Shown here piece by piece: positions 693 to 36,235 of a DNA stretch of 36,351 bases. Position numbers and translations under genes: made by a program. Below the pieces are notes generated by a model. The model made no database searches. It had not been told where the DNA came from and was given only the letters and a program-made list of their open reading frames with translations. Every line of letters starts with the position of its first letter. Position 1 is the stretch's first letter. Origin of the DNA: Escherichia coli (lineage in GTDB: Bacteria; Pseudomonadota; Gammaproteobacteria; Enterobacterales; Enterobacteriaceae). Location of the stretch: the NCBI RefSeq assembly GCF_017348835.2, contig NZ_CP072313.1; one strand, 5' to 3'.

Positions 693-1123
693 TTTTAATC
701 TCCTGTCCGTTTGGACTTAAGAAGGAAAGGAGCCTGTCCCCTTTCGATGAAACAATAATACATCTATTTGGATGTATCATCAAGATTTCTGGCCTGAAAA
801 ACGGTAAATTATTTGGTGGTTGCACGCTTTTTATCCGCGCCAGCGGATGGAAGGGGCGAACGAAAAAACCAGGGGAGCACAAGAGCCACATCGCCCCGGG
901 GCGCGGCAACGCCGCTACTGTTATCAACCGGAACCAGGGATACCCTCCCGCCCTGCTAAGCCCGACTGACTCACAGACAACGATGACGCTGATTTGCGCC
1001 GCAGAATGCCGCAGTTAGCGCTCGCGCCAGCGAGTTTACGCCGTCCAGGGTTTACTTGGACGGGGCGCTGTACTGCGCGTGTGAGCGTCAGCGAGCTACG
1101 GGTGCAACACACCAGAAGTTAAA
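693..1123 (+). repeat. type-A module copy 1: conserved 5'UTR plus promoter plus about 300-bp GC-rich structured element
   Basis: aligns along its length with 2453-2866 and 4523-4950; GC-rich core also matches 21376-21657; contains hairpins ATCCGC-GCCA-GCGGAT and CCGTCCAGG-loop-CCTGGACGG. Confidence 0.8.
755..783 (-). promoter_or_regulatory. sigma70-type promoter of module A1 (-35 TTGATG, 17-bp spacer, -10 TATTAT on the minus strand)
   Basis: hexamers read on the reverse complement; near-identical promoter repeated at 2515-2543 and 4585-4613; A/T-rich UP-like sequence just upstream. Confidence 0.55.
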
Positions 1124-1409
1124 CCGCTCTTAATATGGTTTGCATTAAAATCTTTCTTGACGAATCCTCATTAATATCACACTTGAAGGAAATTATTTTT
1201 ATTGCTCTCTTTTTCAGAGCGCTTTTTATTTGAACTGTTGATAATAAATCCTTGTAAATCGGATGAAGATAAACCCCATATTTATCTTCAAAAGCTCTAT
1301 CAATTTTTGATGCATTCATAATAGCATCAAAACAATTATCATCATCCACAGGGCAAGCTGTCCAAAACATCATTTCAACAGCCATTTTCTTAGCTTCATT
1401 AATCATCAT
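1119..1409 (-). CDS. hypothetical protein (96 aa)
   Basis: ORF in the track; its stop codon lies inside the conserved 3' end of element A1 (CCAGAAGTTAA). Confidence 0.5.
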   Translation of the reverse strand: MMINEAKKMAVEMMFWTACPVDDDNCFDAIMNASKIDRAFEDKYGVYLHPIYKDLLSTVQIKSALKKRAIKIISFKCDINEDSSRKILMQTILRAV

Positions 1410-1470
1410 CCCCCCTTTTATTACTTAAGGCGACTATAGTTACATATAGCACTTTTGTCTCAATATATGA

Positions 1471-1497
1471 AGGGGCGGAAATGCCCCTTTTTATTTA
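1471..1497 (-). terminator. hairpin AGGGGC-GGAAAT-GCCCCT with adjacent T/A runs (terminator candidate, possibly bidirectional)
   Basis: inverted repeat read directly; followed by TTTTTATTT on the plus strand. Confidence 0.3.
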
Positions 1498-1632
1498 AAA
1501 CATTTCATACCCTTGCAAGTAGTTTAACCACCACCGAAATTGATCCCACTCACTAAACGTCATTGCTGGAATTCTGGTTTCCCAGCCTTTGACAAGAGAA
1601 TCAGCAAGCTGTACGATCTGCCGAGTTGACAT
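1495..1632 (-). CDS. small hypothetical ORF (45 aa, MSTRQIVQLADSLVKGWETRIPAMTFSEWDQFRWWLNYLQGYEMF), not in the ORF track
   Basis: ATG preceded by GAGG about 8 nt upstream on the minus strand; too short for the 60-aa track cut-off. Confidence 0.3.
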   Translation of the reverse strand: MSTRQIVQLADSLVKGWETRIPAMTFSEWDQFRWWLNYLQGYEMF

Positions 1633-1710
1633 TTAAAAACCTCATTATTCAGTTTTGATTGTCGATAACGTGATCAGGTTGGTGGAACAACCTGATCACA
1701 CCTTGAATAG

Positions 1711-2076
1711 TCAGTCATTACCCTCCTTCTTTTCTATAGTTACTGTGTATCCGTAAAGGGTCAAAATGCGATAAGCATCCAACGCCTCACGCTCACTTTT
1801 AAATGTTCTGACTTCGTGTAATCCATTACCTTTATCAAGGGATACACAAAACTCATAATCTTCTTCTACTTCTATCTTTTTAATTAATTTATCAAGTTCG
1901 GCTAATGTTCGTTTTGGCTCAAAAAGAAATGTGCATTGTACAATGGCGTTTAAACCTTCCCGATCAAGCTCTAACAGAGCATCATTATAAGCAGCTTTAA
2001 AACAGCGATTATTACGCAGATCAGATGCAAACTGCATTGCGGCTTGTTTTAACGTTTTCATGAATTTCCCTTGCAT
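1711..2076 (-). CDS. hypothetical protein (121 aa)
   Basis: ORF in the track; co-oriented with module genes; followed by a 12-bp inverted repeat (GTGATCAGGTTG...CAACCTGATCAC) at 1669-1697. Confidence 0.5.
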   Translation of the reverse strand: MQGKFMKTLKQAAMQFASDLRNNRCFKAAYNDALLELDREGLNAIVQCTFLFEPKRTLAELDKLIKKIEVEEDYEFCVSLDKGNGLHEVRTFKSEREALDAYRILTLYGYTVTIEKKEGND

Positions 2077-2152
2077 TGATGTTAATAGACAATTTCAGAA
2101 TCAATATTGAAATTTCCAGAAAATGCAGGGTTCCCCCCTGCATTTATAATGC

Positions 2153-33752: not shown

Positions 33753-34154
33753 ATGAAAAAGATCGATAGTTTATTATCTCCAATATGCGAGACGATAAAA
33801 GAAACAAATTCAAAATCAAAACAGGCTGTCTTCAATATGTATTTATCGAACATACTTGAAGCAAAAAGTTATTATACATGGGAGCAAATAACAGATTACA
33901 TAAATAACAACACCAAGACAGAACTAGCCAAAAAGACTTATATGAACATGACAGAGAGAGCCAAAAAAAGGCAAAAATGCACTGAGCAAAAAGATCTAAG
34001 AAAAAGCACCAATATAATTGAAAAAAAAACAGATGAAGACAACAAACAAAGAGGGGGCGTAAAAGGATTTTTTTCAACAATCAGCGAGAACAAAAACGAA
34101 ATAGATCACGATCCAAGCGCAACCAATGAAAAATTTATAAACAAATATCTTTAA
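33753..34154 (+). CDS. basic Lys/Asn-rich protein, possible StbA-like DNA-binding protein
   Basis: position after the repeat array and before a ParA-like ATPase; GAGAGG Shine-Dalgarno. Confidence 0.45.
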   Translation: MKKIDSLLSPICETIKETNSKSKQAVFNMYLSNILEAKSYYTWEQITDYINNNTKTELAKKTYMNMTERAKKRQKCTEQKDLRKSTNIIEKKTDEDNKQRGGVKGFFSTISENKNEIDHDPSATNEKFINKYL

Positions 34155-34171
34155 GTAAAGGTGTATCATAA

Positions 34172-34927
34172 ATGAAAAACTCAATAAATTTTATCCTTCA
34201 AGGAAAAGGCGGTGTAGGAAAATCATTTACAACGGCAATACTAGCACAATACTTTATTGATGAAAAAAACATGGATAACGTCGTTGTAGGCGACACAGAT
34301 CCTGTAAATACAACTACAGTTAAAGTAAAAAGATTAAATGCTGATTTAATACAAATCACTGAAAACAGCAAAGTAGTCCAATCTAAATTCGATCCAATGT
34401 TCGAATCAATGCTAACTAATGGTCAAAATACATTTGTCATTGATAATGGTGCTTCTACATTTTTACCATTAATTCAGTATTTCAATGACAACTATGTAAT
34501 GGATATGTTTAACGAAGTTGAACAAGAAGTTTATATCCATACTATTATTGTTGGCGGTCAGGCACAAGCAGATACAATAGAAGGTTTTGAAGATCTTGTT
34601 AAACTAGTAAAAGGAACAAAAGTAAAAATAATAGTATGGATTAATGAATTTCAGGGTGCACCAGCACTTGAAAACATTCCTTTAATTAAAACTAAATTCA
34701 TTGAAAAAAATAAGGATGTCATCGCTGGAGTTGTGGTTATTCAGGACAGAAAAAGCGATGCCTTTGCTTCTGACATCAAAAATTTAACCGAAAAATCACT
34801 AACATTAAAAGAAGCCCTTGAATCAGAATATTTTGGATTAATGGCTAAATCTCGTCTCAAGCGAGTTTTTAACGATATATATGTGCAACTTGATTCAATC
34901 TATGACATGCAGCACACAGAAGCATAA
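34172..34927 (+). CDS. ParA/MinD-superfamily P-loop ATPase (StbB-like)
   Basis: deviant Walker A GKGGVGKS near the N-terminus; adjacent to putative oriT. Confidence 0.7.
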   Translation: MKNSINFILQGKGGVGKSFTTAILAQYFIDEKNMDNVVVGDTDPVNTTTVKVKRLNADLIQITENSKVVQSKFDPMFESMLTNGQNTFVIDNGASTFLPLIQYFNDNYVMDMFNEVEQEVYIHTIIVGGQAQADTIEGFEDLVKLVKGTKVKIIVWINEFQGAPALENIPLIKTKFIEKNKDVIAGVVVIQDRKSDAFASDIKNLTEKSLTLKEALESEYFGLMAKSRLKRVFNDIYVQLDSIYDMQHTEA

Positions 34928-34976
34928 GTGATTATATAACAGCCCTTATGGGCTGTTATATTCATGAGGACAAGTT

Positions 34977-35654
34977 ATGATTAATGATAAATCCTTTAAC
35001 ATTGAAAACATTATTTCTGATATTTTTAAAGAAACCAGATTAAAAATAAGTAAGGACGATCCTGTTTTAAGCATAGTACTAATGCATGAAAAAATACTCG
35101 AACATGCACTAACACAACTTAAAAACAGTAATCAAATAGCTACTGAAAGATTATCTCATGACATATCTTCAATAAGAGATGCAATCAACGCATTACCTGA
35201 AGCTATTGATGAAAAAACGTCAGAACTACAACATGCAGCAGTAGCACTTCATGACGAATTCCAGGAAAGCAAAGGAGAAATTAAAGGTTCTCTGGAAGAA
35301 GCACGAATTAATGCAACAGAGAAATTAGCAGAAAGTGCAAAAGAACTTCAATTAAACATTACAAAAGTTGCCGAAAAAACAACAGAAACAATAGACACAG
35401 TAAATAAAATAATAAGCAATATAGAAACCGAACTATATGACATAAATAAAAAAGCTCTACATGATTATGTAAAAGAGATTAAGTTAGTGGATGAAAAAAG
35501 AAAAAGTATAACAACTAACCTGGAAAGTGCAATTAATGACGCTTTCAAAAAAAGCGTAAAATCGTTTAAGTTTTATTGTAGCGCGGCATTAATTATTAGC
35601 ACTCTACTACAATTCACAATGTGGGGGTTCTTTCTATATAAGCTTCTGACCTGA
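34977..35654 (+). CDS. coiled-coil protein with C-terminal transmembrane anchor (225 aa)
   Basis: GAGGA Shine-Dalgarno; C-terminal hydrophobic segment AALIISTLLQFTMWGFFLY. Confidence 0.5.
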   Translation: MINDKSFNIENIISDIFKETRLKISKDDPVLSIVLMHEKILEHALTQLKNSNQIATERLSHDISSIRDAINALPEAIDEKTSELQHAAVALHDEFQESKGEIKGSLEEARINATEKLAESAKELQLNITKVAEKTTETIDTVNKIISNIETELYDINKKALHDYVKEIKLVDEKRKSITTNLESAINDAFKKSVKSFKFYCSAALIISTLLQFTMWGFFLYKLLT

Positions 35655-35860
35655 TGTTTTAAATGCCGCTTTAGCGGCATGGAAGGCGGCACTCTGTAGC
35701 TAAATGTGGTTTCGCTGGTTATCCGCCGAAGCCCCGCGCTAGCGGGTGCTGAATTCTATATTCTGAGGAACAGCGCTCGCGCCCCCTGCTAAGCCAAAAA
35801 CGCACGAAACCAACAGCCACTCGATTGTTTCTGGTCGAAGACTGACAATGTTAAAGCGAC
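35655..35860 (+). repeat. type-B structured element copy 4
   Basis: hairpin ATGCCGC-TTTA-GCGGCAT; starts at the stop of the upstream gene. Confidence 0.8.
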
Positions 35861-35980
35861 GTGACAAAAATATTTGAGCAACTACTCAAGAAAATTCGGT
35901 TTTGAAATTGAACAATGGTCTGATTTCACACCGACAATGCAATATTAATCTGCCGTTACAACGTCACTGAAACTCTGCTC

Positions 35981-36235
35981 TACACGCTCGTAAGCGGCCC
36001 TGACGGCCCGCTAACGCGGAGATACGCCCCGACTTCGGGTAAACCCTCGTCGGGACCACTCCGACCGCGCACCGAAACTCTGTCATGGCTGAAAGCGGGT
36101 ATGGCTTAGCAGGATGGGGATAGGTAAGGTGAAATCTATCAATCAGTACCGGCTTACGCCGGGCTTCGGCGGTTTTACTCCAGTTCCACATGTAACAACG
36201 GAGTGCCGCCTTCCATGCCGCTGACGCGGCATATT
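35981..36235 (-). repeat. type-C structured element copy 2, inverted relative to every other copy
   Basis: reverse complement is about 95% identical to 7301-7554; hairpin ATGCCGC-GTCA-GCGGCAT on the minus strand. Confidence 0.8.

Follow-up and report, generated by a model that had tools for sequence, protein, structure and literature searches.

How the strand that enters a recipient cell during conjugation is primed has so far been described only in general terms, and attention has gone to the Frpo promoters, which depend on RNA polymerase. Another kind of start is the plasmid single-strand initiation (ssi) signal of the 'G site' class, which is reportedly recognised by the primase DnaG alone and which we take to act on SSB-coated DNA through three conserved blocks, A, B and C. 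In the IncFII plasmids R1 and R100, the G site is said to lie downstream of oriR and to be a start of leading-strand synthesis that needs primase only. A total of eleven ssi from F, R6K, R100 and ColE2 have been cloned, according to the passage of PMC7690428 that cites Nomura et al., 1991; one of the F signals, ssiE, appears in Supplementary file 4 of PMC11541004 under the 'known Frpo and ssi sequences', and a 2026 preprint infers that the incoming strand is 'repeatedly primed', naming no sites. A further point of comparison is provided by the conserved upstream (CUP) repeats of the IncN plasmids pKM101 and R46, which the passages of PMC6289460 and PMC5371602 that recount the source study (Delver and Belogurov, 1997) describe as repressor-controlled promoter modules and as substrates of recombination and inversion. 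Here we describe ten elements (A1–A4, B1–B4, C1 and C2) in a 36,351-nt stretch of Escherichia coli DNA (contig NZ_CP072313.1 of assembly GCF_017348835.2; below, the window), which is an essentially complete circular plasmid and whose two ends overlap. Judged by sequence, the ten elements are new members of the G-site class of ssi signals, and we consider it probable that DnaG starts on them when they are single-stranded, with C1 serving the replicon and the plus-strand copies priming the transferred strand.

The original prediction, made from the letters of the window, held that ten GC-rich elements carry short conserved cores and self-complementary segments, that nine share one orientation, that several begin close to stop codons and that paired changes in the stems reflect selection on a folded single strand rather than on a protein. 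Each of these observations was borne out. A covariance model retrieves exactly ten copies in the window, nine on the plus strand and one (C2) on the minus strand, and finds no eleventh copy there at E ≤ 1; core GC content is 53–64%, against 43% for the whole window, five copies (B1, B2, B3, B4 and A4) start 1–13 nt past a stop codon, and the cores and hairpins that had been quoted are all present (ATGCCGC/GCGGCAT with the loops GCCA, ACAA, TTTAA and TTTA, ATGTCGC/GCGACAT, ATCCGC/GCGGAT and GTCTGC/GCAGAC). A single layout fits all ten copies: hairpin I, GNAAGG, stem II, CCGRRGC, hairpin III, about 31 nt and CCTGCYARRCC. Hairpin I comprises 6–7 bp with a loop of 4–5 nt and is followed by GNAA and the 5' arm of stem II, which encloses a variable segment of 29–31 nt and whose 3' arm leads into G(A/G)(A/G)GC; hairpin III, of 5 bp, precedes T(A/G)CTG, a variable segment of 30–33 nt and the terminal CCTGC(T/C)A(A/G)(A/G)CC. 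The lengths of these spacers are constant while their sequences differ, and the ten copies, F ssiE and the IncFII element all parse to this one pattern, with spacers of 29–31 and 30–33 nt. We take the three unpaired blocks to correspond to the published blocks A, B and C, and refer to the last of them as block C; it occurs ten times in the window where shuffled sequences predict 0.08 occurrences, and its CTG is present in every copy.

The covariation and covariance-model checks that had been proposed give a consistent picture. In a hand-curated alignment of 12 sequences, parsed by hand and then aligned in MAFFT with N padding, both sides change at 9 of 19 pairs and 92.8% of cells pair. Among 36 distinct members, drawn from ten plasmids or contigs, both sides change at 11 of 19 pairs and 91.9% of cells pair, compared with 29–50% when the partners are slid, and none of 500 shuffles reaches the observed values; this larger alignment was fitted to the covariance model, which favours structure, and the slid controls are still far lower. 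In distant members whole stems are replaced, as with CCTCCCG/CGGGAGG in hairpin III, GGCTA/TAGCC in stem II and ATGTCC/GGACAT in hairpin I. When MAFFT and RNAalifold were run automatically on 12 cores, only hairpin I was recovered, type A being misaligned against type B. The elements form one family with a compensated structure of three stems, in which core identity is 85–95% inside a type and 54–70% across types. A direct-repeat search recovers the same three families and sets their full lengths at about 286–425 nt for type A, 200 nt for type B and 260 nt for type C. A 3' extension of about 125–145 nt is common to types A and C, recurs past the G-site core of IncFII plasmids and is missing in type B; its hairpin is conserved with a type-specific apical sequence (CCGTCCAGG... 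versus CCGAC.AGGG...), and covariation in it is weaker than in the core.

The family, which the original prediction did not recognise, belongs to the G-site class represented by F ssiE and by the oriR-linked G site of IncFII plasmids, its A type being laid out like the IncN CUPs. A search with F ssiE in nhmmer finds B2 (E 3.8e-8), B1 (3.4e-6), B3 (9e-6), B4 (6.3e-5) and C2 (3.9e-4), all in the same orientation, and the covariance model built from all types gives ssiE 71.6 bits; type A is tied to the family through the covariance model (95–104 bits) and through the common layout. An element that lies 0.7–0.9 kb downstream of IncFII-type repA genes on the opposite strand is nearly identical to C1 and C2, their 3' extension included. 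Indeed, the distance from the repA stop codon to the core is 712–908 nt in four replicons (the window, L002, the IncI2 replicon L085 and the RepFIC replicon of F, L086), and in the window the C1 core lies 712–850 nt from the repA stop, with the sole DnaA box (7837–7845) in between, about 400 nt from C1. The record of phage G4 annotates a primer at 3970–3997 and the complementary-strand origin at 3998, so that, on the template strand, the start is the T of the CTG within TACTGCAAAGCC. Block C reads CCTGCTAAGCC in the window, and the IncX4 copies carry CTGCAAAGCC exactly. Since block C is universal among members and the upstream TACTG is not, the primer start most likely lies in block C.

The types differ in how widely they occur. 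The C/IncFII type is found in more than 5,000 plasmid records and type A in about 1,170 plasmids, among them mcr-1 plasmids of the IncX4 and IncI2 groups, while type B is known from about 12 plasmids of the window's lineage only. In that lineage there are 10–12 copies per 36–43 kb: a relative that is 88–90% identical, pS19_141-b, has 12 copies, and copy positions are conserved, as are the place and orientation of the C2 equivalent (L088, 11371–11509). A4 is an insertion relative to the orthologous junction of virB11 and the coupling-protein gene in IncI2 plasmids, which carries none. A pattern scan of genome contigs returned 78 loci, 14 of which contain a real member (15 model matches), the rest being chance; these 14 are plasmid-like contigs of enterobacteria or else probably stem from plasmids contaminating other assemblies. 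Members also sit on short contigs (L012, L029, L052, L053, L074 and others) of Streptomyces, Collinsella and Acinetobacter assemblies, whose near-identity to enterobacterial plasmid sequence suggests that they are plasmid contamination.

Three of the type A copies are joined to promoters. Next to A1, A2 and A3 lies a module, read on the minus strand and 93% identical among the three, which consists of TTGAT(G/A)-17-TATTAT, a 5' untranslated region, GGAG and ATG, and homology stops at the start codon. All three promoters contain the palindrome ATACATC-N-GATGTAT between the -35 and -10 boxes, and in all three the sigma-70 promoter is 49 nt from hairpin I and about 170 nt from block C. A small gene for a transcriptional regulator lies in the same region as these promoters and is a candidate repressor. 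In the IncN plasmid R46, the model finds weak matches (18–29 bits, E 4e-7 to 6e-4) in the four intergenic regions upstream of ccgAI, ardA, ccgD and ardB, each on the strand opposite these genes and at 28 nt from a promoter of the form TTGAC(T/C)-17-GATAAT; these CUP copies retain hairpin I, GGAAGG, stem II and CCCTGCTAAGCC. A fifth R46 member adjoins rep on the other strand.

Which strand the elements occupy bears directly on what they may do. As a general rule, illustrated by RP4, the leader operon enters the recipient first and the relaxase operon last, and since these two operons diverge in the window from a probable oriT, the plus strand would be the transferred strand. Inverted repeats precede the conserved core ATCGCTnTCGTGCCTGT of this oriT, and an alignment of oriT regions finds the core conserved in three related plasmids, yielding no mapped nick; a nick-site motif suggested by the window (ACATCNCTGTC) is not common to relatives. 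The leading side of the probable oriT (33547–33700, plus strand) carries about ten short repeats, AACCCACA(NN), which are conserved in an IncI2 plasmid and to which the traK-like oriT protein may bind. With the transferred strand so assigned, it carries 9 of the 10 copies in the window (binomial p=0.02), 11 of 12 in pS19_141-b, where the exception is in the C2-equivalent place, all 4 in IncI2, 2 of 3 in IncX4, 4 of 5 in R46 and both in F. Of the hypotheses of the original prediction, that of priming sites on the transferred strand is the one that we favour.

In the mechanism that we consider probable, an element that becomes single-stranded and coated with SSB would keep its three stem-loops exposed, the host primase DnaG would recognise these directly, and the primer would start at the T of CTG in block C and copy back over the stem-loops, as in G4. 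C1 would then be where the leading strand of the IncFII-type RepA/oriR replicon is started, and the nine plus-strand copies, spaced 1.5–12 kb apart, would be dispersed primase entry sites from which the recipient makes the complementary strand in Okazaki-like fashion, each primer being extended back toward DNA that entered earlier. Because the G site lies 49 nt upstream of the promoter at A1–A3, primer extension from block C would pass through the core, the promoter and then the leading-region operon, so that these promoters and operons might be made duplex first and hence become transcribable while the repressor is still absent. That types A and B depend on primase and that priming is linked to the activation of promoters is, like the other steps, what we infer from geometry and homology. 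As for C2, which is on the retained strand, one may speculate that it would prime in the same direction as transfer, synthesis from C2 and from B4 diverging. B4 and C2 face each other in the window.

It is appealing, if tentative, to extend this scenario and to propose that the lineage multiplied a primase signal into an array of 10–12 copies that fixes the course of conjugative DNA synthesis. Here the 9–11 copies on the transferred strand would act as fixed starts of discontinuous synthesis and replace a plasmid primase. A G site 28–49 nt upstream of a repressible promoter would render promoter and operon duplex within a second of priming, in type A here, in the IncN CUPs and in similar repeats of IncX4 and IncI2 plasmids, and could thus permit early 'zygotic' expression without a promoter of the Frpo type. 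C2 would either prime synthesis of the replacement strand in the donor or pair with B4 in an origin-like arrangement. We regard these three parts, taken jointly, as possible but doubtful.

Several considerations weigh against the priming interpretation. The folding energies of the cores are no better than those of shuffled sequences for types A and B (z -0.1 to -1.0), so the claim of structure draws on covariation and not on thermodynamics, and for ssiE and the IncFII element the primase-only status is as reported in earlier work. The transferred strand is assigned from gene order and an oriT-like motif rather than from a mapped nick, and the plus strand is also the leading-strand template of a unidirectional replicon, so that orientation alone cannot separate a conjugative from a vegetative role. 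Moreover, the orientation of A1–A3 is tied to that of their promoters and is no independent evidence, while B1–B4 and A4 are all sense to operons, which means that orientation does not speak against an RNA-level role for these five. The covariance model finds no family member in R388, indicating that such sites are no general requirement for conjugation, and the mechanism gives no account of the minus-strand copy C2.

It is possible to read the same elements at the level of RNA, as structures of intercistronic mRNA (stabilisers, signals for processing or termination, or the like of repetitive extragenic palindromes) or as a small family of non-coding RNAs, and the compensatory changes would fit RNA equally well; B1–B4 and A4 do reside in short intergenic gaps, sense to the secretion and leader operons and often right past stop codons. 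However, orientation in the family tracks the DNA strand and not local transcription, since A1–A3 are antisense to the flanking minus-strand operons with their DNA orientation unchanged while B1–B4 and A4 are sense to their neighbours, and this constancy speaks against the family as a whole acting as RNA. It is the unpaired blocks that are most conserved, with block C matching a primase start site, and the relatives of the elements are known DNA priming signals. No Rfam family matches the elements at the gathering threshold, the matches at E ≤ 1 being of chance level only (A1; 7250–10850), and no U-tracts follow the stems. The structured non-coding RNA that the original prediction entertained is therefore improbable in our view. 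We find its ssDNA-promoter hypothesis more improbable still. Frpo-type promoters are single-stranded DNA whose long hairpin mimics a duplex promoter, such that RNA polymerase transcribes leading genes and makes primers, and A1–A3 are suitably upstream of genes templated by the plus strand; recent work also groups ssiE with Frpo in its 'Frpo/ssi' queries (PMC11541004), and new classes of ssDNA promoter are still turning up in the literature. Yet F ssiD, an Frpo-type entry, and ColIb Frpo1 give no nhmmer match at E ≤ 10, the stems of the elements measure only 5–7 bp and lack -35 and -10 boxes, and no long hairpin rebuilds such boxes. A1–A3 have a separate, near-consensus duplex promoter of their own, where a full single-stranded fold of A1 shows only a short local hairpin; there is no gene in the right orientation downstream of the B copies, A4 or C1, and in the leading region of F the model finds only ssiE.

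Ten dispersed copies in three subfamilies might instead point to mobile DNA, either a miniature inverted-repeat transposable element (MITE) or a remnant of a single-strand transposon of the IS200/IS605 type that spread through the plasmid. The absence of A4 from the orthologous IncI2 junction would suit this idea, as would the strand bias, and single-strand transposons have subterminal hairpins. The junctions of B1–B4 and of thirteen A-type copies, however, exhibit no terminal inverted repeats, target-site duplications or target motif, no transposase is annotated, positions are kept in the relative that is 88–90% identical, and C1 occupies an ancestral replicon position, so that we give the MITE-like reading, also raised by the original prediction, barely any credence. 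A possible terminal inverted repeat around A1 (GGTGGTTGCAC / GTGCAACACACC) is not kept in other A copies. We also considered integron attC sites, remnants of retrons or group II introns, and duplex sites for DNA-binding proteins, which were dropped on general grounds and with no dedicated test, because no integrase or reverse transcriptase is annotated, the elements are not simple palindromes and the compensatory pairing is within one strand. A further scenario, which we also find rather unlikely, is that only C1 primes and that the other copies descend from a G site but now serve as CUP-like insulators, terminators or recombination hot spots. The passages on IncN CUPs as repressor-controlled promoters and as substrates of recombination and inversion (PMC6289460, PMC5371602) agree with it, type A is common to IncX4, IncI2 and the window's lineage in a manner fitting modular exchange, and the leading region is bracketed by C1 and C2 as an inverted repeat of 260 nt. 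Nevertheless, the ten copies keep all blocks, both spacings and three stems at a between-type identity of 54–70%, which would be unexpected of decaying relics, and even the far more diverged R46 copies still keep hairpin I, GGAAGG, stem II and CCCTGCTAAGCC. Priming by DnaG, at C1 and at the other plus-strand copies alike, thus remains the interpretation that we prefer.

Table 1. Positions of the ten elements and of other features in the window (+ and - denote strands; T4SS, type IV secretion system)
Feature	Position	Strand	Remarks
A1 promoter module	693-829	read on -	93% identity among A1-A3; promoter TTGATG-17-TATTAT at 783->755, ATG at 692-690
A1 core	830-968	+	hairpin I, GNAAGG, stem II, CCGGGGC, hairpin III, TACTG, CCTGCTAAGCC; covariance model, 99.2 bits
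A1 3' extension module	969-1113	+	from alignments; hairpin kept, sequence differs
A2	2453-2873	+	promoter module, core 2590-2729, extension; promoter 2543->2515 on -
A3	4523-4944	+	promoter module, core 4660-4799, extension; promoter 4613->4585 on -
A4	21378-21663	+	core 21380-21518 and extension, without promoter module; between virB11 and coupling-protein gene
B1	10599-10798	+	short form, core 10599-10740; 1-2 nt past stop codon, upstream of lytic transglycosylase gene
B2	14976-15175	+	short form, core 14976-15117; between virB4 and next T4SS gene
B3	23719-23919	+	short form, core 23719-23861; directly past coupling-protein gene
B4	35660-35859	+	short form, core 35660-35801; directly past third gene of traK/L/M-like leader operon
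C1	7299-7560	+	core 7299-7437 and extension; G site of the replicon, opposite strand to repA
C2	35975-36239	-	inverted copy of C1, core 36097-36235; 91% identical over ~265 nt
3' extensions	969-1113, 2730-2873, 4800-4944, 21519-21663, 7438-7560, 35975-36096		types A and C
A-type promoters	755-783, 2515-2543, 4585-4613	-	A1, A2 and A3, respectively
Small genes	80-4522	-	order like leading regions elsewhere; one annotated CcgAII, downstream of A1
Transcriptional regulator gene	2856-3113	-	annotated
repA	8149-9204	-	IncFII/LM-type initiator (RepA_IncFII_LM), NCBIfam NF040977, E 2.5e-93
VirB-type T4SS and coupling protein	11.1-23.7 kb	+	
MOBP relaxase	29.7-33.4 kb	-	Relaxase and LPD7 domains; with VirD1/RelB-like accessory gene
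Probable oriT	33410-33560	+	inverted repeats, then conserved ATCGCTnTCGTGCCTGT core; between relaxase operon (-) and leader operon (+)
traK/L/M-like leader operon	33.7-35.7 kb	+	

The remainder of the plasmid is that of a small conjugative element (Table 1). The window is 100% identical to pMB9635_3 of E. coli (NZ_CP103482.1) over the 4.5 kb compared, and neither a primase nor a transposase is annotated in this near-identical record; a scan of the relaxase and ten other open reading frames likewise found no primase domain. C1 and C2 constitute an inverted repeat of about 260 nt, 91% identical, that flanks a 7.4-kb segment in which A1–A3 and the leading-region genes lie together with parA and a toxin-antitoxin pair. 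An A-rich repeat of 49 nt (AGAAC.TTAAAG.AA.ACAAAGGATTT...) occurs at 5779–6994 in three diverged copies, downstream of parA and in the surroundings of the toxin-antitoxin pair; these copies may be partition-site repeats. Directly 5' of repA (9184–9341, minus strand) a sub-threshold match to the repZ regulatory pseudoknot (RF01087; 30.6 bits, E 6e-4) would fit an antisense RNA-controlled replicon of the IncI/IncFII type. Another Rfam match, to AgrB (RF02891; 61.9 bits) at 29631–29716 on the plus strand, corresponds to the antisense RNA from a type I toxin system that resembles dinQ, and a gene for a 'DinQ-like type I toxin DqlB' is annotated near it in the near-identical record.

New here are a pair of diverged subfamilies, a copy number that is unusually high, a strong bias towards one strand and, subject to a check of prior publication, the physical coupling of such elements to CUP-type promoters. 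A small plasmid in which no primase gene is recognised and which has ten primase start signals, nine of them on the transferred strand, would make the question of how the incoming strand is primed directly testable, and the layout of type A suggests a simple way in which leading-region genes under ordinary promoters could be switched on early. The elements are unannotated in thousands of clinical plasmids, for whose annotation the covariance model could be used. There may also be a consequence for surveys of ssDNA promoters: ssiE is one of the five 'known Frpo/ssi' queries in a study that counted 13,089 'Frpo-homologous promoters' (PMC11541004). As its sequence sides with the primase-type G sites, some of these promoters may be primase sites, and were the tentative array scenario true, surveys for 'Frpo-like promoters' with ssiE as query would include such sites.

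A comparison with the described systems places the elements most closely to F ssiE (D90180.1), which has the same layout, block order and spacings and is significantly similar to types B and C. It starts inside the last codons of a transglycosylase gene adjoining oriT, much as the B copies abut stop codons, although its hairpin III is degenerate, and F has one site in its leading region and one in RepFIC where the window plasmid has ten. The IncFII G site of R1 and R100 lies at the same distance from repA and on the same strand relative to it as C1; types A and B, by contrast, are diverged from it (54–70% identity to type C) and located away from the replicon, and C2 is an extra, inverted copy. 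With the CUPs of IncN plasmids, A1–A3 share the disposition of repeated modules upstream of leading-region operons, with a strong sigma-70 promoter, an operator and homology that ends at the start codon, whereas the R46 CUPs match the covariance model of the family weakly (18–29 bits). The Frpo, ssiD and ColIb ssi1–3 signals are also folded signals of the transferred strand in leading regions and can likewise supply primers for the complementary strand, but they are hairpins of about 300 nt with -35 and -10 boxes that RNA polymerase recognises, unlike the elements of the window. The origin of G4, finally, has neither overall similarity to the family (the covariance model has no match in the G4 genome at E ≤ 1) nor stem-loops related in sequence, yet it shares the primer-start motif (CTGCAAAGCC in the family, CTGCTAAGCC in G4) and bears its stem-loops, as the elements do, 5' of the start on the template strand.

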